From Pyrinomonadaceae bacterium (GTDB lineage: Bacteria; Acidobacteriota; Blastocatellia; Pyrinomonadales; Pyrinomonadaceae): a stretch of DNA of 64,000 bases. The notes under the pieces are model-generated. The model did no database searches. It worked only from the letters and a program-made list of their open reading frames with translations, and was not told the origin of the DNA. The position numbers and the translations under genes were made by a program. The stretch spans positions 762-64,761 of the forward strand of contig DATFDT010000053.1 in NCBI GenBank assembly GCA_035251975.1, given 5' to 3'. Below are positions 764-54,981 of the stretch, one piece after another (positions within the stretch are counted from its first letter, which is position 1; every line of letters begins with the position of its first letter).

Positions 764-863
764 TTCTCTGTGCAACCTCTCTGTTCTCTATGTCTCTGTG
801 GTTAACTAATCCACAGCAAAACTCACCACAGAGACACCGAGAACACAGAGGTTGCACAGAGAA
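764..863. repeat. Family A heptamer-array hairpin element, copy 1 (loop inverted relative to copies 5-7)
   Basis: Left arm TTCTCTGTGCAACCTCTCTGTTCTCTATGTCTCTGTGG, right arm CCACAGAGACACCGAGAACACAGAGGTTGCACAGAGAA. Lies between the mpl start (752) and the stop of the next gene (870). Confidence 0.9.
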
Positions 864-869
864 GAGCAG

Positions 870-1739
870 TTATCTTAATTCATCTGCATAGACCTTCATC
901 GATTCCGCCAGCGACATCGGTGCGAAAGCAATCTGTTGTCGCGCGGCGGAGATGTCGGCGTAAAAATCGAAGTCGGATGTTAAGCGATCGACGGGAGTAA
1001 TGTCGCTCTTGCTGCCGAGTGCGTCAACGAGGGCGCGCGCGTATTCCATGGTTGTGGTTCGTTTGCCGCATCCCAGGTTGAGTATCGTGAAACTATCGGC
1101 GGGCGGTTGCGAGATACAGTTGTCGACAGCGCGCAGTACGTCGCTGATGTGAAGTGCATCCCTGACCAGCTCGCCGCGTGCGAGGAGTTCGATCGGCTCG
1201 TCACGTTGCGCAATGCGTGCGAGGTTGTCAACAAAACTCTCCTGCTGATCCGCTCCGTAGAGACTCGGTAGACGCAGCACAATGATTCTGGTGTAGCGTT
1301 GAAATGTTTCGAGCAACTGTTCGGCCCAGCGCTTCGTAGCGCCATACGGTAGCGTGCCGCCCGCTGGACCAGCTTCATCGACGGGAATCACGGAAGGCCG
1401 GCCGTACACGCTCAAAGTTGAGGTGTAAATGATCAGGCGCGGTGGTTGTTGCGTCAGTCCTTCGATCAGGTTTGAAGTCGCGTGAACATTCGCGTCGACG
1501 AAGTCTAGTAACTCACCGGGACCGGATTCTTTAGAGTAGGCGTGAACGACGACCTCGGGAGCAGCTAGCTTCTCGATCACACGCGGCGAATCCTGCGCCG
1601 TCAAATCAATCGTGACGGTCTGGCTGGCTGCCGCGCAGTCTTGCGGCGAGAGTGCGGTGACGTCATGTTGGTTGGCGACGAGGTGTTGGGCCAACCTCGT
1701 GCCAACAAACCCACTACAGCCGGTTATCCAGATGTTCAA
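870..1739 (-). CDS. NAD-dependent epimerase/dehydratase family protein (extended SDR)
   Basis: 289-aa ORF. N-terminal Rossmann motif ITGCSGFVG and catalytic YxxxK (PYGATKRWAE). Confidence 0.75.
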   Translation of the reverse strand: MNIWITGCSGFVGTRLAQHLVANQHDVTALSPQDCAAASQTVTIDLTAQDSPRVIEKLAAPEVVVHAYSKESGPGELLDFVDANVHATSNLIEGLTQQPPRLIIYTSTLSVYGRPSVIPVDEAGPAGGTLPYGATKRWAEQLLETFQRYTRIIVLRLPSLYGADQQESFVDNLARIAQRDEPIELLARGELVRDALHISDVLRAVDNCISQPPADSFTILNLGCGKRTTTMEYARALVDALGSKSDITPVDRLTSDFDFYADISAARQQIAFAPMSLAESMKVYADELR

Positions 1740-1749
1740 GCGAATCTTC

Positions 1750-7849: not shown

Positions 7850-8045
7850 CGCCGAAGGCGTTGGCTAATTTCAGCCCAGGGTTCTCGTTCCTCGAACCCT
7901 GGGACACGATTTTCAAATCGCGACCAAACCCTGAAAGGGTTAGGCGGTTGGCGAACCCTTTCAGGGTTAATACCGGAAATTAATTGGCGATCCCAGGGTT
8001 CTCGTTCCTCGAACCCTGGGCTGAAATTAGCCAACGCCTTCGGCG
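7850..8045. repeat. Family E nested-palindrome element (MITE-like), copy 1, 196 bp
   Basis: 32-nt terminal inverted repeats CGCCGAAGGCGTTGGCTAATTTCAGCCCAGGG / CCCTGGGCTGAAATTAGCCAACGCCTTCGGCG. Internal hairpins include CCCAGGGTTC..GAACCCTGGG (x2) and AACCCTGAAAGGGTT / AACCCTTTCAGGGTT. A second copy lies at 19718-19917. Confidence 0.9.
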
Positions 8046-9592: not shown

Positions 9593-9678
9593 TTCTCTGT
9601 GCAATCTTTGTGTTCTATGTATCTCTGGTGGTGAGTTAAACCACAGAGACACAGAGAACACAGAGGTCGCACAGAGAA
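9593..9678. repeat. Family A hairpin element, copy 2 (short, degenerate left arm)
   Basis: TTCTCTGTGCAATCTTTGTGTTCTATGTATCTCTGGTGG ... CCACAGAGACACAGAGAACACAGAGGTCGCACAGAGAA. Ends 1 nt before the stop codon at 9680. Confidence 0.9.
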
Positions 9679-9679: not shown

Positions 9680-10636
9680 TCAAAGCCACGAAGACGTGAC
9701 CAGCATTTTGAGCCGTTGCCTCGGGACGAACGGTGCGGCGGCGGCGCAGGCGAGCCACTTAATCGTGTGTTTTATTCTGTCACTCAACAGCGCTGCCCTG
9801 ATCATCTCTCGTAGACAAGCTCCGAGCGGGCCGTGCGAGATAGTTTCGAGTGCGAGTGTCTGCTGATCGTTCCGCATGTGCTCGCGATTCAGCGCCAAAA
9901 CCTCCGCGTCGGCCGTAAGTGCTTCGACCTTCTTCCGGATCAAAATCATCGACGAATACATCTTTCGCCGGTCAGCGCTGGAACTCGCAGAGTGCCATCT
10001 GACGAGTGCCATTGTCCCGGCTGAATCGATAAACTGAAAACGCATTCCCGCAGCCGCGCAGCGCAGCCAGTAGTCCCAGTCCTCCGCCGGAGGAAGCGCG
10101 TTATCAAACAGTCCGATCGCATCAACAACTCTCCGACGGATCAAGGGAGAATTGATCACCATGATGTTCTGGCGCACGAGTGCAGTCAAAACCTCTTTGC
10201 CGCTGCCGGACGTTTCGGGCATCCACGGCTTGTTTTCACCCCAAACCCAATAGAGTCTCTCATCGGGCGCTTCGGTCTTGAAGTAACGCATGCTGCCGTA
10301 GACGACGTCCAGGTGCGTGTGCGCTTCCAAATACGCAACCTGCTTCTCAAACTTCTGCGACTCGATCAGATCATCGGCGTCAAGAAACTGTATGTACTCG
10401 CCCGCACAGTTTCGCAGGCCGTTGTTCTTGGCCGCAGCTTGCAGCGCATTTTCTTGTCGCAGGAACTTGAGGCGCGTGTCTCGTTCTATAAAGCGCGAGA
10501 CACGCTCAGCAGTGTCGTCCGTTGACCCGTCATCAATGATGATGCACTCCCAGTTGTCATAGGTCTGTGCGCGGAGGCACTCCAGCGTCTCGCCGATGAA
10601 GCGACCATAGTTATAAGTCGGGACGATGACACTCAC
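9680..10636 (-). CDS. Glycosyltransferase family 2
   Basis: VIVPTYNYGRFIGETLECLRAQTY, IIIDDGSTDDT, FLDADD. Confidence 0.85.
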   Translation of the reverse strand: MSVIVPTYNYGRFIGETLECLRAQTYDNWECIIIDDGSTDDTAERVSRFIERDTRLKFLRQENALQAAAKNNGLRNCAGEYIQFLDADDLIESQKFEKQVAYLEAHTHLDVVYGSMRYFKTEAPDERLYWVWGENKPWMPETSGSGKEVLTALVRQNIMVINSPLIRRRVVDAIGLFDNALPPAEDWDYWLRCAAAGMRFQFIDSAGTMALVRWHSASSSADRRKMYSSMILIRKKVEALTADAEVLALNREHMRNDQQTLALETISHGPLGACLREMIRAALLSDRIKHTIKWLACAAAAPFVPRQRLKMLVTSSWL

Positions 10637-15630: not shown

Positions 15631-15722
15631 TTCTCTGTGCAACCTCTGTGTTCTCTGTGGTTGTTTTTTCTAAGGTACAGCGAACCACAGAGACACAGAG
15701 AACACAGAGGTTGCACAGAGAA
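15631..15722. repeat. Family A hairpin element, copy 3
   Basis: TTCTCTGTGCAACCTCTGTGTTCTCTGTGG ... CCACAGAGACACAGAGAACACAGAGGTTGCACAGAGAA. The left arm lacks one heptamer. Confidence 0.9.
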
Positions 15723-15726: not shown

Positions 15727-16953
15727 TCACTTCTTCGCAGCGAACCGTTCGTTAACTTCGGATCCATTTGCAATGATGAACCTGAGGAGCTCACAGATGG
15801 CGGAAATCTGTTCAGAATCAACGGCTGTACCTGTGGGTAATGCGACCACTCGCTCCGCTACCTGCTCAGTAACCGGTAACCTCGAGCCGGCGTTGGGATC
15901 GTCAGTTCGGTAAGGCTCCATTTGATGACAACCGGGATAGAAGTACCGCCGCGCGAGAACTTTTTCCGCGTGCAGCAACTCAACTACCTGATCACGCGTG
16001 ACGCGATTCTTCTCGTCATTAATTTCGATAATTACATATTGGTAGTTGCCTTTGTTTTCAGTGTCGTAGTTGATCAAACTCAGGCCGTCGACATTTGCCA
16101 GCTCCGCTGCATACTGTTGATAGTTGCGTTGATTGATATCGATGAAGTCCTGCATGCTTTCGAGATTCGTGAGACCGAACGCAGCCGAAACCTCATTTAG
16201 CTTCCCATTCGTTCCGATATAGTCTGTTTGATCGTAGTTAGAGAAACCAAAATTTTTCATCAACCGCATCTTAGCGGCGAGCTCGGAATCGTTCGTGACA
16301 ACTGCGCCGCCCTCCATTGAGTTGATGAACTTCGTCGCGTGGAAACTGAATACTTCAGCATCGCCGAAGCGACCAATCATGCCGTCTCCATGAGAACAGC
16401 CAAAGGCGTGAGCGGAATCGAAAAGGAGCTTCAGACCGCGTCGCGTAGCGATCTCCTCCAGCGCTTCAACCTCACAGGCGCGACCGAAAACATGAACCGG
16501 CAGGATGCCTGTCGTTCGCGGAGTGATCAACTGTTCGACGAGCGTAGGATCGATGTTGTATGTGTTTCTATCGATGTCACAGAAGACTGGCGTAATCCCC
16601 TGCCACTTGAGCGCATGGGCAGTAGCAATGAAAGTGAACGAGGGCACGATTACTTCGCCGCTGAGATTCAATGCTCGAATCGCAATCTCGAGAGCGACTG
16701 TGGCATTGCACATCGCGACGCAGTGTTCGACGCCAACAATCTCTGCTATCCGTTTTTCGAAATCACTGACGTAACGGCCGCCATTCGTAAGCCAATGTCG
16801 ATCGAGGATATCCCCAAGCCGTTTCTCAAACTCCTGTCGATTGCCGATATTGGGCCGGCCTACGTGTAACGGTTCAGCGAACGCAGCGTCGCCGCCGAAA
16901 TATGCCAGATCGGAAACGGTAGACTTAAGCTGGTCCTGTTTTACAGCGGACAT
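15727..16953 (-). CDS. DegT/DnrJ/EryC1/StrS-family PLP-dependent NDP-sugar aminotransferase
   Basis: 408 aa. FSFHATKFINSMEGGAVVT contains the Schiff-base Lys in its usual context. CNATVALEIAIRAL is the N-terminal family region. Confidence 0.85.
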   Translation of the reverse strand: MSAVKQDQLKSTVSDLAYFGGDAAFAEPLHVGRPNIGNRQEFEKRLGDILDRHWLTNGGRYVSDFEKRIAEIVGVEHCVAMCNATVALEIAIRALNLSGEVIVPSFTFIATAHALKWQGITPVFCDIDRNTYNIDPTLVEQLITPRTTGILPVHVFGRACEVEALEEIATRRGLKLLFDSAHAFGCSHGDGMIGRFGDAEVFSFHATKFINSMEGGAVVTNDSELAAKMRLMKNFGFSNYDQTDYIGTNGKLNEVSAAFGLTNLESMQDFIDINQRNYQQYAAELANVDGLSLINYDTENKGNYQYVIIEINDEKNRVTRDQVVELLHAEKVLARRYFYPGCHQMEPYRTDDPNAGSRLPVTEQVAERVVALPTGTAVDSEQISAICELLRFIIANGSEVNERFAAKK

Positions 16954-17597: not shown

Positions 17598-17681
17598 TTC
17601 TCTGTGTAACCTCTGTGTTCTCTGTGGTTGTATCATTCGTTAACCACAGAGACACAGAGGACACTGAGGTTGCACAGAGAA
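17598..17681. repeat. Family A hairpin element, copy 4
   Basis: TTCTCTGTGTAACCTCTGTGTTCTCTGTGG ... CCACAGAGACACAGAGGACACTGAGGTTGCACAGAGAA. Confidence 0.9.
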
Positions 17682-17691: not shown

Positions 17692-18621
17692 CTAGCTCTC
17701 TAACAGCGTGGCGTATCCAAACCCCTCTACTCCAAACCCATTCCCGTTATAAAACATCAGCGTGCGGCCATTCGCGACCGCCACCGCGGGGTAAGCAATC
17801 ATTTTTGAATCCCAACCGTCTTCAGAAGGATCGATTCCAGCCTGACTATCATCTCTGGACCATCGCTTCATATCGTCGGAAGAGGCATACCCGATTCGAT
17901 AAGCAGTTTCACCATCGCGAAAGTTACGACTGCCGCGGTAGCAGAACCACATGTGATATCGCTCCGCGATCTTTAACACAGTCGGTCTGGTTATAGCCTC
18001 ATAATCCGTCCGCTGACAAATTGCCGGCTCCTGAGTTGGAGTCCAATTGATGCCGTCGTTCGAGTGAGCATATCTGATGTCATAAACATGCTCATGCTTT
18101 CCGTCGACGTCGAGCCAGCCGGTTCCCGAGCCGTACCACATGTGCCAATCATTACCCTCGCGCAACACTGTGGGCGAAGTAGCCGAATAAGGATCGTGCA
18201 AACTTCTCGACAGAATCGGCCCCTCGCTGATCTTAGTGAACGTCTCTCCACCATCATCGCTAATCGCGAGGCCGGTGGAATTGATGTAGGGAACTGACGC
18301 CGATCGCGACCAGCCGCTGTAGTAAAGGAAGACCTTGTTTCCGTCCCTGATTGCGGCGCTGGGCATGATACCGTGCTCATCAAACGTGCCTGGTTTTCCT
18401 GGTTCGAGTAAGGGATCGGAATGCAAACGAACGACTCTGCTCGGGTCGTCGATGTCGAGATCAATGAAGCTGGTCAAGCTTAGATTCGGTTGCGGGCGCG
18501 ACGAGAAATAGACTCGAATAACATCGTCACACACTAAAGGAGTCGGTACCTGCGCATGAGTCTTCATCCAACCGCCAGCGCCGTTGGGTGAAAAAACCAA
18601 TCCCTTCTTTTGCCATTTCAT
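17692..18621 (-). CDS. Hypothetical cytoplasmic protein, beta-propeller glycosidase/glycan-phosphorylase-like fold (tentative)
   Basis: 309 aa from the ATG at 18621 (MKWQKKGLVF). Earlier track start codons overlap the upstream gene. Blade-like segments recur (VFLYYSGW, WHMWYGSG, YHMWFCYRG, LMFYNGNG). No signal peptide. Confidence 0.5.
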   Translation of the reverse strand: MKWQKKGLVFSPNGAGGWMKTHAQVPTPLVCDDVIRVYFSSRPQPNLSLTSFIDLDIDDPSRVVRLHSDPLLEPGKPGTFDEHGIMPSAAIRDGNKVFLYYSGWSRSASVPYINSTGLAISDDGGETFTKISEGPILSRSLHDPYSATSPTVLREGNDWHMWYGSGTGWLDVDGKHEHVYDIRYAHSNDGINWTPTQEPAICQRTDYEAITRPTVLKIAERYHMWFCYRGSRNFRDGETAYRIGYASSDDMKRWSRDDSQAGIDPSEDGWDSKMIAYPAVAVANGRTLMFYNGNGFGVEGFGYATLLES

Positions 18622-18638
18622 GAGAATCAGGTGGAGGA

Positions 18639-37015: not shown

Positions 37016-37024
37016 CTGATTTGG

Positions 37025-37093
37025 CCACAAAAAGGCACAAAAGGCACAAAATAGAAGACTAAGAATCTTTGTGCTTTTTGTGCATTTTTGTGG
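37025..37093. repeat. Family D heptamer-array hairpin element (single copy in the window)
   Basis: CCACAAAAAGGCACAAAAGGCACAAAA-loop-CTTTGTGCTTTTTGTGCATTTTTGTGG, imperfect. Confidence 0.85.
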
Positions 37094-37101
37094 CTTGAGA
37101 C

Positions 37102-38229
37102 TTGAGAGAAATGAAGGTTCCGTTAATAGATTTACAGGCACAGTATGTTTCGGTACGCGATGCGATTCGCCTGGCGGTTGATCGCGTTTTCGAGACTCAA
37201 CAGTTTGTGATGGGTCCGGAAGTCGCCGCGCTTGAAGCGGAAGTCGCAGCTTATTGCCAAACGAATGAGGCGATCGGATGCGCTTCCGGTTCTGACGCTT
37301 TGCTGCTGGCGCTGATGGCCCTGAACGTTGGTCCGGAAGACGAAGTCATTACGACGCCGTTTAGTTTTTTCGCTACGGCCAGCGCGATTGCACGGGTGGG
37401 CGCGCGACCTGTTTTCGTCGACATCGATCCACTTACGTACAACTTGAATGTCGATCGAATCTCGGCAGCGATCACTTCGCGCACCCGGGTGGTGATTCCA
37501 GTGCACTTGTACGGTCAATGTGCCGAGATGGACCAGATACTGGCTCTGTGTAAAGCGAAAGAGCTTGTTGTACTCGAGGATGCCGCACAGGCGATCGGCG
37601 CCGAAGATCGCGGGCGGCGTGCTGGTTCGATGGGTGTGGCCGGTTGTTTTAGCTTTTATCCCAGTAAGAATCTTGGTGCGGCAGGAGATGCGGGGATCAT
37701 CACGACCAGCGATCCGGCTTTTGCAACCAGAGTGCGAAGGCTGCGTGTACACGGTGGTCTAACCGAGTATCAACACGTTGAGGTGGGAATCAACAGTCGT
37801 ATTGATGCGCTTCAGGCTGTCGTGCTTCGCGCCAAGCTGCCTCACTTGGATGGCTGGTCCAACGCGCGAGCGGAGAAGGCGCAAATCTATTCGCACCTGT
37901 TGGAAGGCGCGAAGCTGAGTTTCAAGCTGGATCCGCCGTTCATTAAGCCTGACAGTCGTCACATCTTTCATCAATACGTTGTCCGAGTTCCCGATCATCG
38001 CGACGCGCTGATGGCGCACTTAAAAGCGCGCGAGATCGCGACCAAGATTTATTACCCGATTCCGCTGCATCTGCAGGAGTGCTTTGCATACCTGGGCTAC
38101 AAAGAAGGCGCTTTCCCCGAGGCCGAGAAAGCCGCTCGGGAAACTTTCGCTCTTCCTCTTTACCCTGAGCTTGCGTTGGAGCAACAGGAATACGTCGTGA
38201 ACGCGATTAGGGATTTCAACTCTGCGTAA
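37102..38229 (+). CDS. DegT/DnrJ/EryC1/StrS-family PLP-dependent NDP-sugar aminotransferase
   Basis: 375 aa. GCASGSDALLLALMAL, and FSFYPSKNLGAAGDAGIITT with the catalytic Lys. The last codons and stop lie inside repeat B2. Confidence 0.85.
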   Translation: MREMKVPLIDLQAQYVSVRDAIRLAVDRVFETQQFVMGPEVAALEAEVAAYCQTNEAIGCASGSDALLLALMALNVGPEDEVITTPFSFFATASAIARVGARPVFVDIDPLTYNLNVDRISAAITSRTRVVIPVHLYGQCAEMDQILALCKAKELVVLEDAAQAIGAEDRGRRAGSMGVAGCFSFYPSKNLGAAGDAGIITTSDPAFATRVRRLRVHGGLTEYQHVEVGINSRIDALQAVVLRAKLPHLDGWSNARAEKAQIYSHLLEGAKLSFKLDPPFIKPDSRHIFHQYVVRVPDHRDALMAHLKAREIATKIYYPIPLHLQECFAYLGYKEGAFPEAEKAARETFALPLYPELALEQQEYVVNAIRDFNSA

Positions 38230-38309
38230 TCTCTGCGTTCTCTGCGCCTCTGCGGTAAAAAAGCATGTAAACCACAGAGGCGCAGAGGACGCAGAGGCTA
38301 CGCAGAGAA
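38220..38309. repeat. Family B hairpin element, copy 2 (contains one family-A-type heptamer)
   Basis: CTCTGCGTAATCTCTGCGTTCTCTGCGCCTCTGCGG-TAAAAAAGCATGTAAA-CCACAGAGGCGCAGAGGACGCAGAGGCTACGCAGAGAA. Confidence 0.9.
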
Positions 38310-38326: not shown

Positions 38327-39307
38327 ATGCCAGAACAACCAAGAGTGTTGGTGACGGGAGCCGGTGGTTTCATCGGTCACCATTTGACCAATTATCTGTT
38401 GGACCGGGGCTACTGGGTCAGAGGCGTTGATATCAAGAGACCGGAGTTTGAACCGACGCGCGCTGACGAATTTCTTCTACTTGATCTCACCAACGCTGAG
38501 AACTGTCTGCGCGCGACGCACGAGATTGATGAAGTTTACGGGCTGGCCGCAAACATGGGCGGCATCGGATTTATCGAAAATAACAAAGCAGTAATAGTTC
38601 GCGACAACACACTCATTAACTTAAACACGATCGAAGCCGCGCGTCTGAATGGTGTTAAGCGTTACCTCTACACCTCGAGCGCCTGTATTTATCCGGCTTA
38701 CCTGCAGAACGAAACGAATGTCGCGCCTTTGAAAGAAAGCGACGCGTATCCAGCCGATGCCGAGGACGGTTACGGTTGGGAAAAACTCTACATGGAAAGA
38801 GTTTGTCGCCACTACACCGAAGACTTCGGACTCGAAACACGCGTCGTCAGATTTCATAACATCTTTGGTCCACTCGGCACCTACGACGGCGGCCGCGAGA
38901 AATCACCGGCAGCGATCTGCCGCAAGGTGGCGCTTGCAAATCATGGCGATGAAATTGAAGTTTGGGGAGACGGGGAACAAACGCGGTCTTACTGTTACAT
39001 CGACGATTGCGTTGAAGGAATCTACCGGTTGATGCGCAGCGATCATCGCGAGCCTATCAACCTTGGCCAGGATCGAATGATCTCTGTCAATGAGCTCGTC
39101 GACATGGTTGCAGAGATTGCCGGCAAGCAGATCGGTAAACGTTACGATTTGACCAAGCCGCAGGGCGTCAGAGGTCGCAACAGCGACAACACTCGTCTGC
39201 GCGAGGTTTTGGATTGGGAACCCGCGATTTCCCTCGAGGAAGGATTAGCTCGCACCTACCACTGGATCGCCGCAGAACTCACCAGAGCAGTGCAAGCAGC
39301 ACCATGA
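38327..39307 (+). CDS. GDP-mannose 3,5-epimerase-like extended SDR
   Basis: VTGAGGFIGHH, NMGGIGFIENN, SSACIYP, YGWEKL, RFHNIFGPLGTYDGGREKSPAAICRK, WGDGEQTRS, GVRGRNSDN. These strings closely follow those I recall from plant GME. Confidence 0.75.
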   Translation: MPEQPRVLVTGAGGFIGHHLTNYLLDRGYWVRGVDIKRPEFEPTRADEFLLLDLTNAENCLRATHEIDEVYGLAANMGGIGFIENNKAVIVRDNTLINLNTIEAARLNGVKRYLYTSSACIYPAYLQNETNVAPLKESDAYPADAEDGYGWEKLYMERVCRHYTEDFGLETRVVRFHNIFGPLGTYDGGREKSPAAICRKVALANHGDEIEVWGDGEQTRSYCYIDDCVEGIYRLMRSDHREPINLGQDRMISVNELVDMVAEIAGKQIGKRYDLTKPQGVRGRNSDNTRLREVLDWEPAISLEEGLARTYHWIAAELTRAVQAAP

Positions 39308-40551: not shown

Positions 40552-41633
40552 GAGTGTTAGGATTGGCCACATATCCAGTCGAGGCGGCGGCAACCAGGTT
40601 CCGAATGATCCAATTCGTTGAACCTTTAGCCGAGCAGGGGATTGAGCTCTCCGTTTATCCGTTTATCGATTCCAGCCTTTACCGATCGCTCTACAACCGA
40701 TCGCAGTGGCCGCGGACAGCGTTGGGCTTGAGCCTTGCGGCGGTTCGGCGGGTACGCGAGCTAGTGCGTGCGCGGAAGGCGGATGTCGTGTTTGTGCAAC
40801 GCGAGGCGATGATGTTTGGACCACCCCTCGTGGAATGGTTGACCGTAAACCTGCACGGGTGTCCGATGGTGCTCGATCTGGATGATGCGACGTATGTCTC
40901 GTACAAGAGTCCGACTTACGGCCGCATCGGAAGCATGCTTAAATGGTTTAGCAAGACTAATGATTTGATTCGCTGGTCGCGGCTGGTTACCTGTGGCAAT
41001 CGTGAGATCGCAGCTTATGTGACGAGTAAGGGACGGGAGGCTGTCGTGATTCCCACCGTGGTTGACACGACGTGCTTTCGACCGTTAGCTGAGCGGCCGG
41101 AGAGCGATGTGCCCGTTATTGGCTGGATAGGTACGCACTCGACTTTTCCTTACGTGAAAACAATCTTTCCCGTGCTTGAGCGACTCGCGCGCGATCACCG
41201 GTTTCGCTTGCGACTGGTCGGAACCGGAGCGGATAACGTTGTAATACCCGGTGTGGAGATTGAGAACCTGGGATGGAAACTGGAGCGGGAGATTGCAGAT
41301 TTTCAGTCATTCGACATCGGAATTTATCCGATCGTGGAGGATGACTGGTCGGTTGGGAAGTCGTGTTTTAAGGCGGTTCAGTATATGGCTGTCGGAGTTC
41401 CTTTTGTCGTCAGCCCGGTGGGAGCTTGTCACGATATAGCGGAGGCGAACCGGACGCATTTTGTGGCGCGCAGTCAGGAAGAATGGTACGAGCATCTTTC
41501 CCGACTCTTGAGCGACGAGGGTTTAAGGCAGCGGATGGGTGACGCTGGGCGGGGTTATGCGGTCGAGCATTACAGTATCGAAGCGAACGTTCAGAAATTG
41601 GCCGACGCATTAAGAGCCGCAACCTCTGCATAA
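40548..41633 (+). CDS. Glycosyltransferase family 4-like (GT-B)
   Basis: Start set at the ATG at 40548 (ATGA overlap), giving MRVLGLATYPVE. C-terminal KSCFKAVQYMAVGVPFVVSPVG. Confidence 0.7.
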   Translation: MRVLGLATYPVEAAATRFRMIQFVEPLAEQGIELSVYPFIDSSLYRSLYNRSQWPRTALGLSLAAVRRVRELVRARKADVVFVQREAMMFGPPLVEWLTVNLHGCPMVLDLDDATYVSYKSPTYGRIGSMLKWFSKTNDLIRWSRLVTCGNREIAAYVTSKGREAVVIPTVVDTTCFRPLAERPESDVPVIGWIGTHSTFPYVKTIFPVLERLARDHRFRLRLVGTGADNVVIPGVEIENLGWKLEREIADFQSFDIGIYPIVEDDWSVGKSCFKAVQYMAVGVPFVVSPVGACHDIAEANRTHFVARSQEEWYEHLSRLLSDEGLRQRMGDAGRGYAVEHYSIEANVQKLADALRAATSA

Positions 41634-41637
41634 CCTT

Positions 41638-41731
41638 TGAATAGAACAAGTCAGGAAGAGGGGCTTGCCCCCGCTCGTCCAATCCAAGCAGCAGCGGGGG
41701 CGAAGCCCCTCTTCCTGACTTGTTCTATTCA
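41638..41731. repeat. Family G: isolated 94-bp hairpin with a ~38-bp stem
   Basis: TGAATAGAACAAGTCAGGAAGAGGGGCTTGCCCCCGCT-17 nt-AGCGGGGGCGAAGCCCCTCTTCCTGACTTGTTCTATTCA, with one bulge. Starts 5 nt after a stop codon. Confidence 0.9.
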
Positions 41732-41787
41732 GAGGTACGCAGAGCCACTGCAATCGTTAACAAGTTTGTGTATATTGACAGGTCGAC

Positions 41788-43491: not shown

Positions 43492-43495
43492 TTGC

Positions 43496-43596
43496 TTCTC
43501 TGTGCAACCTCGGTGTTCTCTGTGTCTCCGTGGTGAGTTGTTGCTCAGAATCAGTTAACCACAGAGACACAGAGAACACAGAGGTTGCACAGAGAA
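43496..43596. repeat. Family A hairpin element, copy 6 (long-loop form)
   Basis: TTCTCTGTGCAACCTCGGTGTTCTCTGTGTCTCCGTGG-TGAGTTGTTGCTCAGAATCAGTTAA-CCACAGAGACACAGAGAACACAGAGGTTGCACAGAGAA. Confidence 0.9.
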
Positions 43597-43627
43597 ATCT
43601 GAACTGGATCACTGCTAGAAATTCCAA

Positions 43628-44973: not shown

Positions 44974-45074
44974 TTCTCTGTGAAACCTCTGTGTTCTCTG
45001 TGTCTCCGTGGTGAGTTATTGCTGCGAACCAGTTAACCATAGAGACACAGAGAACACAGAGGCTGCGCAGAGAA
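44974..45074. repeat. Family A hairpin element, copy 7 (long-loop form, degenerate)
   Basis: TTCTCTGTGAAACCTCTGTGTTCTCTGTGTCTCCGTGG-TGAGTTATTGCTGCGAACCAGTTAA-CCATAGAGACACAGAGAACACAGAGGCTGCGCAGAGAA. Confidence 0.9.
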
Positions 45075-47014: not shown

Positions 47015-47743
47015 TTGAAAGGTGTAGTGCTAGCTGGTGGCCTGGGGACGAGGTTGAGGCCCCTGACTTCCGTAACAAACAAACATCTGCTGCCGGTGTA
47101 CGACCAGCCGATGATCTATTACCCGCTCCAGACACTCGTGAATGCTGGTATCACCGACATCATGGTTGTGACTGGTGGCAATTCCGCCGGTGAGTTCCTG
47201 CGCTTGTTGGGGAACGGCAAGGCATTCGGCCTCAAGCACCTCAACTATACGTACCAGGAAGGTGAAGGCGGCATCGCGCAGGCACTCTCGCTGGTGGAAC
47301 ACTTTTGCGCGGGTGAACCCGTTTGTGTTGTGCTGGGCGACAACATTATCGAGGGAAACATACGTGCGGCGGTCGCTGATTATCATCGCCAGGGTCGCGG
47401 CGCGAAGATCATGTTGAAGAAGGTTCCGGATCCGCAACGTTTCGGCGTGCCGAGGCTCGAAGGCAAGCGCGTGGTCCGTATCGACGAGAAGCCGGCGAAA
47501 CCACAGTCAGACTATGCAGTCATCGGCATTTACATGTACGACGAGACGGTCTACGACATCATTCGAGATCTGAAACCGTCCGGCCGCGGCGAGCTCGAGA
47601 TCACAGACGTCAACAACGCCTACATCGAGCGTGATGCAATGACATGGGACGAGCTCGAAGGCTGGTGGACCGACGCCGGGACTTTCGAAAGTCTCCTGCA
47701 CGCCTCGAACCTTGTAGCTGAAACAGGCGCCAACAAACATTAA
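47015..47743 (+). CDS. rmlA: Glucose-1-phosphate thymidylyltransferase, short (SpsI-like) form
   Basis: The TTG start gives MKGVVLAGGLGTRLRPLTSVTNKHLLPVYDQPMIYYPL. GDNI is present. 242 aa. Confidence 0.75.
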   Translation: MKGVVLAGGLGTRLRPLTSVTNKHLLPVYDQPMIYYPLQTLVNAGITDIMVVTGGNSAGEFLRLLGNGKAFGLKHLNYTYQEGEGGIAQALSLVEHFCAGEPVCVVLGDNIIEGNIRAAVADYHRQGRGAKIMLKKVPDPQRFGVPRLEGKRVVRIDEKPAKPQSDYAVIGIYMYDETVYDIIRDLKPSGRGELEITDVNNAYIERDAMTWDELEGWWTDAGTFESLLHASNLVAETGANKH

Positions 47744-47744: not shown

Positions 47745-47845
47745 CTCTGCGTAATCTCTGCGTTCTCTGCGCCTCTGCGGTAAAAAGAAAACGAGAACGC
47801 ATGTAAACCGCAGAGGCGCAGAGACCGCAAAGACTACGCAGAGAA
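47745..47845. repeat. Family B hairpin element, copy 3
   Basis: CTCTGCGTAATCTCTGCGTTCTCTGCGCCTCTGCGG-TAAAAAGAAAACGAGAACGCATGTAAA-CCGCAGAGGCGCAGAGACCGCAAAGACTACGCAGAGAA. Confidence 0.9.
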
Positions 47846-50191: not shown

Positions 50192-50237
50192 ATCCACAGA
50201 TTTCACAGATTACCCAGATTCTGTGTAATCTGTGGAT
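50192..50237. repeat. Family C hairpin element, copy 3
   Basis: ATCCACAGATTTCACAGATTACCCAGATTCTGTGTAATCTGTGGAT. Confidence 0.9.
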
Positions 50238-50255
50238 ACAAAACGCGGAACCGAT

Positions 50256-52055
50256 ATGCCTCTTAATCCTCGTACGCTCCTGGCAGTTGCGGCATCTTTT
50301 TGTTTAGCGCTGATACTGACGCCGCTGGTGCGCGCGTTTGCGCGGCGCTTCGGTTTTGTTGCCGTACCCAAAACCGATCGCTGGCACAAGAAGCCCACCG
50401 CCATGCTCGGCGGCGCGGCAATATGGCTTTCGGTAGTCATCACCTGCCTCGCGTTCTCACTGCAAACCACGTACGGAAAATTTATTCTGTTAGCAAGCAC
50501 TCTGCTGTTTCTCGTCGGCCTCGTTGATGATGTGATCCACATCAAGCCTTATCAAAAACTGATCGGACAAATTCTCGGCTCCGCTTACGTTGTCTACTAC
50601 GGACTCAGTCTGCCGTGGACGGGTTCAGTGCTCTTGAACATGGCGCTGGCCATCTTCTGGTTGATTGGCATCACGAACGCCATCAACCTGCTCGACAACA
50701 TGGATGGTCTCGCTTCCGGCATCGCGATCATTGCGGCTGGATTCCTGGCACTCAGCTTCATGAACAGCGGGCAATTCACCGAGGCCGGTGTGCTTCTGGT
50801 GTTTGCCGGTGCTCTGCTTGGTTTTCTGGTTTACAACTCGAACCCGGCATCAGTATTCATGGGCGACTGTGGATCGATGTTCGTGGGTTTCTTTTTGGCG
50901 AGCTCGGCGCTGACTCACATCAGTGGTGGAAGATCGAGAAGCTTCCTTCCGGTGCTTGCAGTTCCGATCCTCGTTCTCTTCATTCCTATCTTCGATACAA
51001 CCTTCGTCACGGTATTGCGCAAGCTTTCCGGCCGTGCCGCATCGCAAGGCGGACGCGATCATACATCGCATCGACTCGTCGCCCTGGGAATGTCGGAACG
51101 TCACGCGGTGTGGATGCTTTATGGGTTCGCAGCACTCTCAGGTCTGCTGGCGATTCTCGTACAACGAGCGCGATTAGACGTCAGCCTAGCTGCGATCGCG
51201 GGCTTCACGATCGTGCTGACACTGATCGGTGTTTATCTCGCCGGAGTTAAGGTTTACGACAAGAGCGAGGAAGAGATGGCGATGCTTAAAGATAAGCCAC
51301 TCTACGCCTTCCTCGTCGACGTTTCTTACAAGCGGCGCATCTTCGAAGTGTTTCTTGACATGGTTTTGATAACCCTGTCGTACTGGGCAGCCTACGCTCT
51401 GAACTTCCCACAGGGGAATCCGGCATGGCAACTGTTTATTCGCACGTTGCCTGTGCTCGTGTTCATCAAGATGCTGGTTTTTCTGGTGATGGGCGTTTAC
51501 CGCGGGCTTTGGCGATACACGAGCATGAGCGATCTGATCGTGTTTGGAAAAGCGGTGGTGCTTAGCTCGGTGGCCTGTTTGCTGCTGATACTGTTTGCGT
51601 TCCGGTTCGAGGGTTTTTCCCGCAAGGTATTTATCATCGACCTGGTGCTAATGTTCATGTTTTTGGCCGGCAGTCGCATGGCGTTCCGATTGTTCCGGCA
51701 ACTGCTGCCGGCGGTGAGTAAAAAAAATGGGCGCCGCGTTCTAATCTATGGCGCAGGCGACGGTGGTGAACTTTTGTTAAGAGAGTTGCGGAACAACCGC
51801 GAGCTGCATTTGGCGCCGATCGGTTTTCTCGACGACGATCCGGCGAAGAGTGGAAAAGTGATTCATGGATTGCGCGTTTTTGGAGGAAATGGTGATCTGG
51901 GTGCGATCTGCATGCAACATGAAGTAGATGAAGTGGTGATTTCGAGTCTGAAGATGACCGAGGAGCGTATTCAGGAAGTATTGCGATGTTGCTCGGAAAA
52001 GCAGATCACCGTTAAGCGCATGCGCATCACCATGGAAGATCTGACGTCGCATTAA
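50256..52055 (+). CDS. Polyprenyl-phosphate N-acetylhexosamine-1-phosphate transferase (WecA/MraY family) fused to a WbpM/PglF/CapD-type N-terminal membrane + Rossmann-like module
   Basis: Start set at the ATG at 50256, since the track start lies in repeat C3. N-terminal half: LVDDVIHIKPYQK, ITNAINLLDNMDGLASG, FMGDCGSMF, GGRDHTSHRL. C-terminal half: GVYRGLWRYTSMSDL, then GRRVLIYGAGDGGELLLRELR..PIGFLDDDPAKSG. No dehydratase domain follows. Confidence 0.8.
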   Translation: MPLNPRTLLAVAASFCLALILTPLVRAFARRFGFVAVPKTDRWHKKPTAMLGGAAIWLSVVITCLAFSLQTTYGKFILLASTLLFLVGLVDDVIHIKPYQKLIGQILGSAYVVYYGLSLPWTGSVLLNMALAIFWLIGITNAINLLDNMDGLASGIAIIAAGFLALSFMNSGQFTEAGVLLVFAGALLGFLVYNSNPASVFMGDCGSMFVGFFLASSALTHISGGRSRSFLPVLAVPILVLFIPIFDTTFVTVLRKLSGRAASQGGRDHTSHRLVALGMSERHAVWMLYGFAALSGLLAILVQRARLDVSLAAIAGFTIVLTLIGVYLAGVKVYDKSEEEMAMLKDKPLYAFLVDVSYKRRIFEVFLDMVLITLSYWAAYALNFPQGNPAWQLFIRTLPVLVFIKMLVFLVMGVYRGLWRYTSMSDLIVFGKAVVLSSVACLLLILFAFRFEGFSRKVFIIDLVLMFMFLAGSRMAFRLFRQLLPAVSKKNGRRVLIYGAGDGGELLLRELRNNRELHLAPIGFLDDDPAKSGKVIHGLRVFGGNGDLGAICMQHEVDEVVISSLKMTEERIQEVLRCCSEKQITVKRMRITMEDLTSH

Positions 52056-52061: not shown

Positions 52062-52153
52062 TTCTCTGTGCAACCTCTGTGTTCTCTGTGTCTCTGTGGT
52101 TCAAGCAATCGTCAACCACAGAGACACAGAGGACACAGAGGTTGCACAGAGAA
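52062..52153. repeat. Family A hairpin element, copy 8
   Basis: TTCTCTGTGCAACCTCTGTGTTCTCTGTGTCTCTGTGG-TTCAAGCAATCGTCAA-CCACAGAGACACAGAGGACACAGAGGTTGCACAGAGAA. Confidence 0.9.
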
Positions 52154-52169: not shown

Positions 52170-53474
52170 ATGCCACAAGAATTGATCCAGGTCAGAGTTC
52201 GGAATCCGCTGATCAAGATACTGCTACTGCTGCTTTTGATCGTTGCGGGTGTTTGGTCGTACTTCGCCGTGAGCTGGTATATCGGCAACACCTTTGCTGA
52301 ATACTCAGATCCGACTACGACTACTGTCGATATTGCACGCAGGGCAGTCGGAATGGCGCCCAACGATCCTTTGACGCACTGGCGTATGGCCCAGGTCGCC
52401 GAGAAAACTCTGACTTTGGACCAGCAAGGTGCGGCTATCGCCGAATACGAAAAGGCGGTGAGTCTATCTCCAAATGATTATCGCTTTTGGATGTCGTTGG
52501 GCCGGGCGTACGAGCAAGCGGGCGAAGCGAATAAGGCCGAGCAGGCATTGAAGCGCGCGGTTGCGCTCGCCCCTGCTTACGCTTACCCGCATTGGTATCT
52601 CGGCAACCTGCTATTGAGAAATGCTCGTTACGACGAGGCTTTTGCTGAGCTGCGACTGGCAAGCAAAGCCGAACCTGAACTACGGCCACAGCAATTCAAC
52701 CTCGTCTGGGCGATCTACAGCGACGATCCGGAAGGGCTCAAGAATGCAGTCGGATCCACCGCCGAAGTGCGGGCCGCGTTCGCGCTCTACATGATCTCGC
52801 AACAGCATCTGGCAGAGGGTCTGCGTTTGTGGGATACCCTGAGTGTTGACGAGAAAACTGCAAACAGAGACACCGCTCAACAAATGATTCAGAGTCTGAT
52901 TAAAGACTTCAAGTTTCACGCTGCCCTAAAGGTTTGGAACGATATTGCGACTGAGAAATTCCGGACAGAGGTGGGCCACGTTTTCGATGACAGTTTTGAA
53001 CTGGCAGGCGGGTATGGTCCAGAAACTGTATTCGGCTGGCAAGTGCAAGGCACGCGGCAAGTGCAGATCGGAGTCGATGCCGGCAGGCTGCACGGCGGGA
53101 CGAAGAGCCTGCGATTCGTGTTTGATGTGCGCGCGAATGTTGAAACTGTGGACGTCTACCAGCTTGTGCCCGTCCAGCCGGGAACGGCCTACAATTTTGA
53201 AGCCTACGTGAGCACTGACAAACTCACGACTGCCGGTGCGCCTCAGATCGATATTGTCGACCCGATGGACAATGCAGTGCTGATGTCTTCGGAGATGGCT
53301 CCCGTTGGCACCAATGGCTGGAAAAAGATCAGTCTGTCTTTCAAGGCGGGCGACAAGACGGAAGCGGTAATTATCAAGATCGTGCGTTTCCCATGCGTTA
53401 ATAAAGAGACGCCGGTGTGTCCAATTTTTGGTACGGTTTGGTATGACGACTTCAGTATCACACGAAGAAACTAG
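52170..53474 (+). CDS. Membrane-anchored TPR-repeat protein with C-terminal jelly-roll carbohydrate-binding-like domain
   Basis: Start set at the ATG at 52170 (MPQELIQV...), since the track start lies in repeat A8. TM segment ILLLLLLIVAGVWSYFAV. TPRs such as AIAEYEKAVSLSPNDYRFWMSLGRAYEQAG. C-terminus FGWQVQG...KSLRFVF...GTVWYDDFSI. Confidence 0.65.
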   Translation: MPQELIQVRVRNPLIKILLLLLLIVAGVWSYFAVSWYIGNTFAEYSDPTTTTVDIARRAVGMAPNDPLTHWRMAQVAEKTLTLDQQGAAIAEYEKAVSLSPNDYRFWMSLGRAYEQAGEANKAEQALKRAVALAPAYAYPHWYLGNLLLRNARYDEAFAELRLASKAEPELRPQQFNLVWAIYSDDPEGLKNAVGSTAEVRAAFALYMISQQHLAEGLRLWDTLSVDEKTANRDTAQQMIQSLIKDFKFHAALKVWNDIATEKFRTEVGHVFDDSFELAGGYGPETVFGWQVQGTRQVQIGVDAGRLHGGTKSLRFVFDVRANVETVDVYQLVPVQPGTAYNFEAYVSTDKLTTAGAPQIDIVDPMDNAVLMSSEMAPVGTNGWKKISLSFKAGDKTEAVIIKIVRFPCVNKETPVCPIFGTVWYDDFSITRRN

Positions 53475-54876
53475 TCTGCTCGTTACAGACTCCGTGCAGG
53501 CGCTCGGCAAAACGAGCTCTCCGGAACATCCGGTGTATCATGTCAGGCATACGCTGCCCAGCCGGTTTGCCTTTCTCGTGATCTGCGTCGCGATTGTGCT
53601 TTCGGCGCTCGCGTACGGAACAGTTCACTACTGGGCGCTCGCGTTATTCAATCTGGGTGCGTTGACTGTCCTCGTGCTGTGGATGCTGGACGCCTGGAAT
53701 TTGGGAACACTCCGCGTCAGCCGTAACTTGTTACAACTGCCTTTGCTTGGAGTTCTCTTACTCGGGCTGATTCAGCTTTTGCCACTTTCCGGCACCTTGT
53801 CACTCGATCCTTATTCGACGAGACTCGTGCTGGTCCAACTAGCAACACTCCTGATCTACTTTGCCGCCACGCTCGTGTTTATTGACACGCCGCATCGTCT
53901 GCACTTGATGGTGCGAACGATCATGATCTTTGGGTTTGTCCTCGCGATCTTTGGACTGACGCAATCGTTCACGAGTCCAACGAAGGTTTACTGGGTTCGC
54001 GAGCTCAGCCAGAGCACGGCCTTCGGTCCTTTCATCAATCGACACCATTTCGCCGGGTACATGGAGCTGACGATCGCGTTGCCATTGGGATTGCTCTTTG
54101 CCGGCGTGGTCGATAAAAAGAAATGGGTACTCTACCTGTTTGTAGCGGGACTGATGGGCGTCGCTTTGGTAATGACTACTTCTCGCGGTGGAATCATAAG
54201 TCTGGTCGCGGAAATTGCGTTTCTGACTATCGTAACGGCAATCTGGAGAACGCAGAGTGAGCGGCGTGGTAAGACGAAATCAAGCCCGTTGAAGAGTGTT
54301 GCCGTGAGGGCGGGTATGGCGGGGGCATTGCTGGTTGGTCTATTTTTGGGCGTGCTGCTGTTAGGCGGCGAGTTCTCGATATATCGTTTCATTGATAGCG
54401 TGAATACTGACGACCCGACGACAGGCCGTGCGCACTTTTGGGCAGTCACGCTCGACATAATCAAAGCACACCCGATTGTCGGTACGGGTTTGGGCGCTTT
54501 CGGTGTTATCTACACGCGCTACGATTCGCGCAATGGTCTGTTTCGACTCGAGCAGGCGCACAACGACTATCTGCAAGTGCTGTCTGACGCGGGTATCATC
54601 GGCGCGGTGTTGGCGTTCAGTTTCGTGGCGCTGCTGTTTTGGAAGGCGATTTCGCGGGCGCGTTCGAAAGATGATTTCCGGCGCGGCGTGGCGCTGGCGG
54701 CGTTGAGTGGGTGTTTCGCTGTGTTGGTGCACAGCTTTTTCGACTTCACGCTGCACACGCCTTCGAATGCGCTCCTGTTTCTCGTGATGGCTGCGCTCGC
54801 GACACTCAACGGGCGTGTCGAAGCACCGCGGCGAAAACACCGCCGAAGTAGCAGTGGGGGCAGCAATTCGGAGTAG
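53428..54876 (+). CDS. O-antigen ligase/polymerase family membrane protein (Wzy_C domain)
   Basis: About 10 TM segments. TTSRGGIISL and LEQAHNDYLQVLSDAGIIG are the hallmark Wzy_C motifs. Overlaps the upstream gene by about 30-47 nt depending on the start. Confidence 0.8.
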   Translation: MVRFGMTTSVSHEETSLLVTDSVQALGKTSSPEHPVYHVRHTLPSRFAFLVICVAIVLSALAYGTVHYWALALFNLGALTVLVLWMLDAWNLGTLRVSRNLLQLPLLGVLLLGLIQLLPLSGTLSLDPYSTRLVLVQLATLLIYFAATLVFIDTPHRLHLMVRTIMIFGFVLAIFGLTQSFTSPTKVYWVRELSQSTAFGPFINRHHFAGYMELTIALPLGLLFAGVVDKKKWVLYLFVAGLMGVALVMTTSRGGIISLVAEIAFLTIVTAIWRTQSERRGKTKSSPLKSVAVRAGMAGALLVGLFLGVLLLGGEFSIYRFIDSVNTDDPTTGRAHFWAVTLDIIKAHPIVGTGLGAFGVIYTRYDSRNGLFRLEQAHNDYLQVLSDAGIIGAVLAFSFVALLFWKAISRARSKDDFRRGVALAALSGCFAVLVHSFFDFTLHTPSNALLFLVMAALATLNGRVEAPRRKHRRSSSGGSNSE

Positions 54877-54882
54877 AATTTC

Positions 54883-54981
54883 TTCTCTGTGCAACCTCTG
54901 TGTTCTCTGTGTCTCTGTGGTTGCTGTTTGTCAGCGATTTGCACCACAGAGACACAGAGAACACAGAGGTTGCACAGAGAA
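54883..54981. repeat. Family A hairpin element, copy 9
   Basis: TTCTCTGTGCAACCTCTGTGTTCTCTGTGTCTCTGTGG-TTGCTGTTTGTCAGCGATTTGCA-CCACAGAGACACAGAGAACACAGAGGTTGCACAGAGAA. Confidence 0.9.

Follow-up and report, generated by a model that had tools for sequence, protein, structure and literature searches.

The stretch of DNA analysed here, 64,000 nucleotides from a Pyrinomonadaceae bacterium (Acidobacteriota; contig DATFDT010000053.1, positions 762 to 64,761) and called the window in the following, is a large locus for surface polysaccharides. Besides rml genes it contains genes for glycosyltransferases, sugar epimerases, aminotransferases, an ABC-2 exporter and Wzy-, Wzx- and Wzz-like proteins. Up to ~32 kb the genes are located on the minus strand, and beyond this point on the plus strand. 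Between these genes lie palindromic hairpin elements whose arms are arrays of the heptamer CTCTGTG. Here, we describe their architecture, their relatives in other genomes and their putative relation to genes of the GxxExxY protein family. As already noticed in the original prediction for this DNA, there is no transposase among the ~46 open reading frames (ORFs) of the window that were scanned or annotated, all of which belong to polysaccharide biosynthesis or export or are without Pfam match. Also no integrase was found among the scanned ORFs and no tRNA or tmRNA near the elements.

Architecture and position of the hairpin elements

Nine copies with a CTCTGTG arm consensus had been predicted, and both their coordinates and the consensus were confirmed. 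The heptamer occurs 59 times in the window as compared to 7.4 expected occurrences (standard deviation 2.8; maximum of 16 in 100 shuffles), and 54 of these 59 heptamers fall within the nine elements. A sister subfamily of unchanged architecture shows a T-to-C exchange in every heptamer of both arms (CTCTGCG/CGCAGAG). Counting its three copies there are 12 heptamer hairpins per 64 kb, and the very high density claimed originally is upheld. The copies are located as follows (positions in the window, folding energies in kcal/mol):

764-863, copy 1: 100 nt, loop inverted compared to copies 5-7; 6 nt past the stop codon of the minus-strand epimerase gene 870-1739; -69.6
9593-9678, copy 2: 86 nt, left arm degenerate and loop short; 1 nt past the stop codon of the family 2 glycosyltransferase (GT2) gene 9680-10636, with the rmlC start 32 nt on; -51.9
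15631-15722, copy 3: 92 nt, fourth heptamer of the left arm deleted; 4 nt past the stop codon of the DegT gene 15727-16953; -63
17598-17681, copy 4: 84 nt, deletion derivative; 10 nt past the stop codon of gene 17692-18690; -52.2
22197-22298, copy 5: 102 nt, right arm with a 1-nt insertion; 12 nt past the stop codon of the short-chain dehydrogenase gene 22311-23054; -71
43496-43596, copy 6: 101 nt, site polymorphic among strains; 4 nt past the carbamoyltransferase stop codon, 31 nt to the start of PMT_2 (PF13231, mannosyltransferase family); -73.5
44974-45074, copy 7: 101 nt, site filled, collapsed or empty in close relatives; 5 nt past the PMT_2 stop codon, 20 nt to the asparagine synthase start; -67.5
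52062-52153, copy 8: 92 nt, short loop; 6 nt past the stop codon of gene 50232-52055; -78.4
54883-54981, copy 9: 99 nt, perfect 39-bp arms; 6 nt past the stop codon of the Wzy-like gene 53428-54876; -84.9
26612-26709, sister copy: 11/9/8 spacing kept, all heptamers CTCTGCG/CGCAGAG; -80.6
38220-38307, sister copy: CTCTGCG; between the DegT gene 37102-38229 and the epimerase gene 38327-39307; -70.4
47745-47843, sister copy: CTCTGCG; 1 nt past the stop codon of gene 47015-47743, 8 nt to the ATG at 47852; -63.1

The modal element is 100 nt long and comprises a 38-nt left arm (TTCTCTGTGCAACCTCTGTGTTCTCTGTGTCTCTGTGG), a loop of 23-25 nt and a right arm that is the reverse complement of the left one. 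The 38-nt unit can be written as AACCACAGAG-A-CACAGAG-AA-CACAGAG-GTTG-CACAGAG-AA, and the element consists of two such units that are inverted and joined head to head over a loop of ~24 nt. Each arm contains four CTCTGTG heptamers, separated by 1-4 nt and following each other in a fixed 11/9/8 pattern (spacings of 11, 9 and 8 nt). The 38-nt arms are 86-100% complementary, i.e. terminal inverted repeats are present, and the termini in the window are TTCTCTGTGC...GCACAGAGAA. All window copies represent the short form of the family (longer composites are described below), and those of only 84-92 nt are deletion derivatives of the 100-nt form in which a heptamer or a part of the loop is lost. Each of the nine copies folds as one hairpin (-52 to -85 kcal/mol; z = -5.7 to -16.5), with none of 200 shuffles reaching the stability of the native one. 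The loop sequence of copies 5-7 appears as its reverse complement in copy 1, and this latter copy is identical in an independent assembly (L214).

The distances between the upstream stop codon and the element are 6, 1, 4, 10, 12, 4, 5, 6 and 6 nt for copies 1 to 9, exactly in the predicted range of 1-12 nt. The range given for the downstream start (11-33 nt) holds where this start is unambiguous (17-32 nt); for copies 1, 4, 8 and 9 the start is uncertain, and for copy 1 the gap is 11 or 47 nt depending on the in-frame ATG chosen. These positions support the view that the elements are transcribed within co-oriented gene strings. No T-run follows any copy, the sequence behind GCACAGAGAA being A/G-rich, and there is no terminator-like call at copies 6-9. 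An intrinsic (Rho-independent) terminator is ruled out because no U-run follows the stem, and for the same reason read-through rather than termination is expected. Search in Rfam over the window reveals no match at gathering thresholds, and relaxed thresholds yield only generic long-hairpin microRNA-precursor matches at about half of their thresholds.

The repeat family in other genomes

A 20-mer of the arm was searched for exactly among the GTDB species representatives (L-numbers denote loci fetched from genomes and metagenomes, with heuristic ORF calls as gene calls). At least 109 stretches match it, nearly all of them from metagenome-assembled genomes (MAGs) of Pyrinomonadaceae and other Blastocatellia. 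Among the matches listed, 14 loci are spread across the 7.49-Mb chromosome OY970193.1 and ~20 loci occur in each of two other MAGs. The loci listed contain 103 paired copies, again with a modal length of 100 nt. Relatives picked by protein and not by repeat (356 kb) contain about a dozen elements, almost all in the closest relatives. Viral contigs gave no match to the element, and with blastn the only plasmid matches were two short, degenerate CACAGAG arrays from Nostocales. Related heptamer variants are CACAGAG, CGCAGAG, CACAAAG and CACAGAT. With the exact 20-mer, inside-out pairs with a short loop are found in Vineibacter, Piscinibacter and a Gemmatimonadaceae MAG, and a Phycisphaerae MAG contains a solo right-arm array. 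In Vineibacter terrae the inside-out heptamer hairpin (L023, 7615-7815) is located between ABC transporter permease and ATPase genes and is spanned by a putative 65-codon ORF with a good ribosome-binding site.

In the full-text literature, searched for the element sequence, for Pyrinomonadaceae repeats and for GxxExxY/PDDEXK_3, no description was found, the sole sequence match being a Bacteroides fragilis PCR primer. The view of the original prediction of a dispersed, non-autonomous hairpin repeat of the kind of repetitive extragenic palindromes (REPs) or miniature inverted-repeat transposable elements (MITEs) is supported. This repeat family is real, abundant and, apparently, hitherto undescribed. 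The primers in question, BF2782 ON-Rev and OFF-Rev, contain AACTCTGTGTTCTCTGTGGTG without any comment in the paper (PMC3090145); this places a CTCTGTG array with GGTG terminus ~1.8 kb upstream of BF2782, where the amplified region with the invertible promoter has its far end.

The wedging between a stop codon and the next start codon on the same strand, as it was predicted, applies to the window but is a bias and no rule family-wide: copies from genome assemblies occupy 48 tandem, 13 divergent and 12 convergent spacers. Apparent “intragenic” copies are few and represent over-extended ORF calls. In tandem contexts the gap on the stop side is smaller than that on the start side in 29 of 40 cases (p = 0.006; medians 32 vs ~100 nt), and the 1-12 nt observed in the window are the extreme of this general stop-side bias. 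Such a bias is expected if insertions that disturb promoters or ribosome-binding sites are removed. No orientation preference relative to genes or transcription was detected (15 vs 17) and this, like the inverted loop of copy 1, agrees with the claim that loop polarity is independent of gene strand. The census thus bears out high copy number, intergenic location and stop-side bias but no orientation bias. As recurrent gene families next to the copies only common large ones (kinases, TonB-type proteins, ABC ATPases) were found.

Target-site duplications, tested for 2-8 nt, are absent (7, 5, 0 and 1 of 102 copies for 2, 3, 4 and 5 nt), and the element shows only a small fixed asymmetry (...TTC-core-ATC(C/A)A...). 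Longer composites account for about one third of the copies found in other genomes. Their 142-nt long form has an outer stem GGTAGTGYCYTA...TARGRCACYACC, and a second composite type (type II) has the outer stem GCTTTGCMCRAAAAGTC. No outer stem without core was found in 860 kb. Three ideas about the target were abandoned. Palindromic flanks as general target are restricted to ~30-40% of the copies, which are the long forms with their defined outer stems; nesting into pre-existing REPs was dropped in the absence of any “empty” outer stem in these 860 kb; and a TTAA preference (TTAA is located 4-10 nt from six window copies) was rejected since the distance varies and TTAA also occurs in the long-form outer stem and in the termini of the gene-carrying cassettes described below. 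In L027 (6298-6712) a palindromic element of ~290 nt (GGCTTTGCCGCCCGATGTGCGGCGACGGCTCTGCCTCG...) sits within the left arm of a heptamer hairpin, which means that hairpin families nest into one another.

Polymorphism among related strains

The PMT_2 gene between copies 6 and 7 was compared with 80 metagenomic orthologues. At the carbamoyltransferase/PMT_2 site the heptamer hairpin is present in the window, in L118 (97% identity) and in L125 (91%). L119, L122, L124, L146 and L147 contain there an unrelated 280-750-nt composite of GCCTTCGGCG units, and L120, L121 and L123 a third palindromic family. Relatives of 75-81% identity are without insert, and their upstream protein is five residues longer (...LVVRKEQAN). 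This site looks like a hot spot of hairpin-element exchange. Among the strains of 91-97% identity, all three hairpin families at this site (window 43492-43627) begin at or beside a TTAA that supplies the upstream stop codon.

The PMT_2/asnB site is filled in the window, L122, L123 and L146, the latter three having lost most of the loop. In L119 (3139-3170, orthologous to 44974-45074 of the window) a deletion between the outermost heptamers has collapsed the element to TTCTCTGTGgctgCGCAGAGAA, a mini-hairpin of 22 nt, and in L118, L120, L121 and L124 the element is absent. Comparison of the filled site of L122 with the empty one of L124 reveals TCT+core+ATCCAT as inserted segment without duplication. 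Being present, absent, collapsed or replaced among strains of 91-97% relatedness, the heptamer repeat shows the behaviour of mobile or unstable DNA.

The window sequence is that of JGI metagenome contig Ga0679424_0000020, and its strain is also represented in five independent short-read assemblies (Logan contigs L111-L115, 1.43-1.44 kb), which comprise the PMT_2 gene only and end inside the flanking hairpins; the repeat thus fragments assemblies.

Symmetry of the palindrome

Between the two arms 31 compensatory cells are found in 12 of 38 pairs compared to 5.0 and 3.6 in column shuffles, although counts of this kind are inflated by common descent. In the stem, G:U mismatches are not more frequent than A:C mismatches on the transcribed strand (28 vs 30), and sense and antisense folding energies do not differ (p = 0.56). 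Within the fixed TTC...ATC frame the loop occurs in both orientations at about 50:50 (13/10, 10/15 and 5/3). In L084 (6716-6814) the flanks form a perfect 30-nt inverted repeat, while related type II copies are asymmetric there; apparently this palindrome was lengthened by copying one flank onto the other. The covarying arms together with the concerted CTCTGCG subfamily, the loop flips, the symmetric G:U and A:C counts and the symmetrised L084 flanks point to maintenance of the palindrome on the level of DNA, via arm-to-arm templating and flip-flop, and not by selection of the transcript. Selection at the RNA level was rejected, as there is neither a G:U/A:C asymmetry nor an energy difference between sense and antisense. 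Consequently, a role of the hairpins as selected RNA finds no support, with strand-symmetric mismatches and with copies that are gained, lost or collapsed between close strains.

GxxExxY genes bracketed by the arrays

In locus L102 two arrays in opposite order (purine-rich first) enclose 390 nt that code for a GxxExxY protein of 126 amino acids (TIGR04256, E = 6e-40; Pfam PDDEXK_3), and these arrays begin 3 and 6 nt from its start and stop codons. The orthologous site L198 has the same array-gene-array' layout. It is found again inside an ABC-transporter operon (L201, L202), between an HD-domain gene and a DJ-1 gene (L203/L221) and between a CarboxypepD_reg gene and a LVIVD gene (L207/L220), so that four independent acidobacterial cassette sites are known. 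At the orthologous position of L207, loci L204-L206 and L208 have kept an array or a whole hairpin only downstream. The array of L207 is identical with the window arm in 37 of 38 positions, and that of L203 shares heptamer order and spacing with it and differs only in a GGGG spacer. Within 20 kb around L207 and around L203 the sole arrays are the two that bracket the gene. In five more GxxExxY homologues mis-called N-termini are translations of arrays, and those of P0004, P0071 and P0100 agree with the window arm. The window arm therefore equals the inverted repeat that brackets GxxExxY genes in other genomes, and would belong to a GxxExxY-cassette repeat family, which is a proposal of this analysis and no established family.

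The association extends beyond Acidobacteriota. In Bacteroides finegoldii an array-bracketed GxxExxY gene is located between radA and the gene of an FAD protein, and the same 24.8-kb record contains three gene-less array-spacer-array' copies, as would be expected of deletion-type derivatives. Bernardetia has three heptamer clusters in 50 kb, two of which flank a GxxExxY gene. In Gemmatirosa a CGCAGAG-type hairpin follows directly past the GxxExxY stop codon, with an L-type array ~120 nt upstream. Three phyla (Acidobacteriota, Bacteroidota, Gemmatimonadota) thus show the association, and Proteobacteria and Planctomycetota contain related arrays. More distant GxxExxY members are accompanied by other repeats, namely CACGGAT-type inverted repeats in Treponema and direct repeats in Prevotella and a Fusobacterium.

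GxxExxY relatives amount to 7,931 proteins at E <= 1e-20. Residues D70, E80 and K82 (D...ExK) are invariant in this family, and so are E30 and Y33 of the motif that gives it its name. A survey of the superfamily lists PDDEXK_3 with unknown function and multiple horizontal transfers (PMC3424549).

Hairpins as possible gene-less partners of a GxxExxY protein

The window hairpins are two copies of the unit that also forms the inverted repeats of GxxExxY cassettes, and cassettes and hairpins are both inserted between unrelated operon genes. Both arrangements are found in one locus in L201 and L202 (array-gene-array'-loop-array). Probably, the nine elements and their three sister copies are gene-less, non-autonomous members of a palindromic DNA repeat family of Pyrinomonadaceae (Acidobacteriota), for which we infer a GxxExxY protein as partner. 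By analogy, the hairpins may be to GxxExxY cassettes what REPINs are to RAYT genes. Acting in trans, a GxxExxY protein whose gene is located in another part of the genome would recognise the heptamer arrays, probably in the extruded form of a hairpin or cruciform, and would drive copying, flipping or loss of the arrays. Selection would then leave copies where they are least harmful, just past stop codons. There, the element would be a passenger of the operon that is transcribed as 38-bp RNA duplex. The terminating ribosome would have to open the base of the stem at 1-12 nt past the stop codon, and the next ribosome-binding site follows closely behind the stem; in the copy at 47745 only 8 nt separate the end of the stem from the next ATG. 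If Correia elements can serve as a guide, likely effects would be RNase III cleavage and protection of the upstream 3' end, and a role of the hairpin as RNase III site or 3'-end stabiliser is plausible by this analogy. There is no sign that such RNA effects are selected.

Several points weigh against this reading. No GxxExxY gene is present within the 64-kb window, and the partner gene in the genome of the window strain is deduced from the cassettes of other genomes. In the cassettes the GCACAGAGAA ends face the gene (inside-out), whereas in the window hairpins they are outermost. Due to this opposite arm topology the hairpins are a circular permutation of cassette ends and not simple internal-deletion derivatives, and only L201/L202 (array-gene-hairpin) and L204 (gene-hairpin) link both topologies. 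Gene-less hairpins are absent within 20 kb in the two cassette neighbourhoods examined, and a cassette together with gene-less copies in one genome was seen only for Bacteroides finegoldii. We infer mobility from patterns of presence and absence, and among the “empty” alleles only that of L124 looks ancestral, while those of L118, L120 and L121 resemble secondary deletions. The assignment as putative nuclease is based on the Pfam family and on conserved residues. For the GxxExxY protein, an AlphaFold model (predicted local distance difference test score, pLDDT, of 75) had no significant PDB neighbour in Foldseek, nor did a sequence search of PDB reveal a significant match; weak, non-significant structure or sequence matches included Cas4 and EcoRV. 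Finally, the gene calls in the fetched loci are heuristic.

Known repeat systems and alternative explanations

The closest likeness is to REPs and REPINs with their RAYT genes (REPtrons). They share with the heptamer repeat the dispersal of short extragenic units as inverted hairpin dimers in many copies, both head-to-head and tail-to-tail dimers, the lack of target duplication, a single small gene with inverted copies of the unit on either side and a location at gene 3' ends within operons. A REP unit, however, is a 20-40-nt palindrome with a GTAG tag, whereas the heptamer unit is a direct array of four spaced heptamers over 38 nt that is not self-complementary, and the REPtron gene encodes a Y1 HUH transposase instead of a GxxExxY protein of the PD-(D/E)XK type. 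A REP by definition is therefore rejected. RAYT-like “TIRYT” genes are known from Acidobacteria, too, and the long inverted repeats on both sides of them constitute repeat families, as described in the account of REP superfamilies by Di Nocera et al. 2013 (PMC3733652). These moderately abundant TIRtron families resemble the heptamer repeat in phylum, in their long inverted repeats and in flanking a small mobility-type gene, but the gene is a RAYT-like tyrosine transposase and the hosts are Terriglobia, not Blastocatellia; the word “heptamer” does not occur in this paper, and CACAGAG-type arrays are absent from its passages compared here (PMC3733652).

We have thus to consider that the window elements are REPINs mobilised by a Y1 (HUH) transposase of RAYT or TIRYT type encoded elsewhere in the genome. 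In addition to the dimer types and the acidobacterial TIRYT genes, the 142-nt form fits this possibility since its outer stem (GGTAGTG...CACTACC), found in the one third of longer copies, has the GTAG/CTAC tags that are typical of REPs. No GGTAGTG-type tag occurs anywhere in the window, however, the tag being confined to this outer stem in other genomes; the window copies are polymorphic between strains without it, and the 38-nt unit itself is no palindrome. A tblastn search with E. coli RayT and IS608 TnpA found no match with E <= 0.1 in 1.2 Mb around more than 100 copies, which is a weak test as the queries were approximate. There is also no recurrent gene family near the copies, and the only array-bracketed genes found are GxxExxY genes. 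The link to RAYT or IS200/IS605-type transposases suggested in the original prediction finds no support in these 1.2 Mb. The arms match the inverted repeats flanking GxxExxY genes instead, and we regard mobilisation by a RAYT-type enzyme as unlikely.

Rather improbable is also a host-selected RNA element, i.e. an operon hairpin that sets the expression of cistrons via RNase III cleavage, 3'-end protection or ribosome stalling at the stop codon. In its favour are the location of all 12 window copies in co-oriented gene strings 1-12 nt past a stop codon, with the next ribosome-binding site outside the stem, the stop-side bias genome-wide and the palindrome itself, from which either transcribed strand gives the same RNA stem. 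Stems of 38 bp exceed the requirement of RNase III, and Correia elements are processed in this way. Correia (NEMIS) and ERIC elements are co-transcribed, MITE-like hairpin repeats of ~100-150 nt, and Correia stems are RNase III substrates that alter mRNA stability; the former have 26-bp terminal inverted repeats, a TA duplication and a site for integration host factor. They provide the best analogy for the probable RNA effect of the window copies, though as a working principle only and without relation in sequence. But G:U pairs do not exceed A:C mismatches on the transcribed strand, about one third of the copies is located in divergent or convergent spacers, copies decay by deletion, and orthologous sites in strains of 91-97% identity are without element or contain a collapsed remnant or unrelated hairpins. 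An RNA effect of the hairpin is likely but would follow from its insertion and not be the reason why the family exists.

The 23S rRNA intervening sequences, in which a small selfish ORF in long inverted repeats resides within a transcribed unit and could be excised from the transcript by RNase III via the stem, match the array-GxxExxY-array cassettes in layout. They differ in encoding a four-helix-bundle protein and in targeting an rRNA helix, and the window copies are without ORF.

A classical MITE would be an internal-deletion derivative of an insertion sequence (IS), mobilised by a DDE transposase with the 38-bp terminal inverted repeats as its binding sites. The long terminal inverted repeats, the length of ~100 nt, the high copy number and the intergenic location would fit such an element. 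In several transposons (Tn7, Mu, IS21) repeated short motifs in the ends are multiple binding sites of the transposase, which would suit heptamer arrays as well. Against it stand the missing target-site duplication, also in the comparison of L122 with L124, and the ends, which are unlike the TG...CA type and between which the loop flips in the fixed TTC...ATC frame. Among the 109 loci listed there is no full-length element with these ends and a transposase gene, and the gene-carrying relatives contain GxxExxY with arrays in the opposite relative orientation. Having terminal inverted repeats but neither duplication nor parent IS, the repeat was not assigned to the MITE class, and this explanation appears very improbable.

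Hardly credible, finally, is an enzyme-free origin, in which replication slippage and fold-back template switching would enlarge the arrays and homologous recombination between copies would spread them, with no dedicated protein: the symmetrised L084 flanks, the 50:50 loop flips and the deletions between heptamers (L119, short window copies) could be products of template switching and the heptamer variants CACAGAG, CGCAGAG, CACAAAG and CACAGAT are related, but neither a near-identical 38-nt unit in at least five phyla (exact 20-mer in Vineibacter, Piscinibacter, Phycisphaerae and Gemmatimonadaceae) nor the specific bracketing of one gene family would be explained.

Two further systems share single traits with the window hairpins. 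Cyanobacterial short tandemly repeated repetitive (STRR) sequences also repeat a 7-nt motif in intergenic DNA, but strictly in tandem, whereas the window heptamers are spaced by 1-4 nt and paired with an inverted copy. Integron attC sites are imperfect hairpins as well (57-141 nt) and are found just past the stop codon in a co-oriented gene string. They were ruled out because the termini TTCTCTGTGC...GCACAGAGAA lack the GTTRRRY/RYYYAAC core sites, and the window is without integrase. The flanking genes are no integron cassettes either, since they are syntenic operon genes in relatives lacking the hairpins.

Other hairpins in the window

Besides the heptamer hairpins the window contains four further large palindromic elements with arms of 40-70 nt. 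Those at 7850-8045 (GCCAACGCCTTCGGCG.../CCCAGGGTTCTCG...) and 34374-34582 (GCATAAAGCCTGGGGCGCAAGCCCCAGG...) represent the families which in other strains occupy the orthologous site instead of the heptamer hairpin.

7850-8045, large palindromic element
19718-19917, large palindromic element
34374-34582, large palindromic element
41633-41736, large palindromic element
37024-37094, smaller motif-array hairpin
50192-50237, smaller motif-array hairpin
58662-58726, smaller motif-array hairpin

The smaller hairpins show the repeated motifs GGCACAAAA and ATCCACAGATTACACAGA. Repeats of the CACGGAT/CACAGAT type flank the Treponema GxxExxY gene and adjoin long-form elements in OY970193.1, which suggests a wider class of “motif-array” hairpins with differing cognate heptamers. 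Downstream of the PMT_2 orthologue, L138 and L140 contain long GGGGAGACAC/GGGGACGC arrays followed by their inverse complement, and these arrays in related soil bacteria are another array-type hairpin family.

The cumulative GC skew of the window has its minimum at ~26-28 kb, a few kb on the minus-gene side of the orientation switch at 32 kb. The gene 29207-31930, encoding a HYR/DUF11 surface protein of 907 amino acids, adjoins this switch (window ~26000-32500). Skew minimum and orientation switch may reflect divergent operons or a replication-related switch.

Significance

Hairpin repeats like REPs, REPINs and MITE-like elements shape operon expression, genome rearrangement and assembly quality. 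The family presented here is abundant in a major but poorly studied group of soil bacteria, and its density in a surface-polysaccharide locus is as high as one copy per 5 kb. Gene callers read through its elements, which results in false N-terminal extensions such as ...HRDTEDTEVAQR....

To our knowledge, a cognate enzyme is known only for the REP-RAYT pair. Through the link between hairpins and GxxExxY cassettes, a protein family and a repeat that were both anonymous become a pair of one protein and one 38-nt DNA that can be tested directly. Tentatively, we propose that CACAGAG-type arrays and GxxExxY (PDDEXK_3) proteins could constitute a cross-phylum system comparable to REP/RAYT, in which a minimal nuclease of the PD-(D/E)XK type would recognise its own flanking arrays and would spread, flip and erode gene-less hairpins throughout the genome, operons included. 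If true, this would provide a function for a large protein family of hitherto “unknown” role and would represent a second type of bacterial partnership between nuclease and repeat, be it domesticated or selfish.

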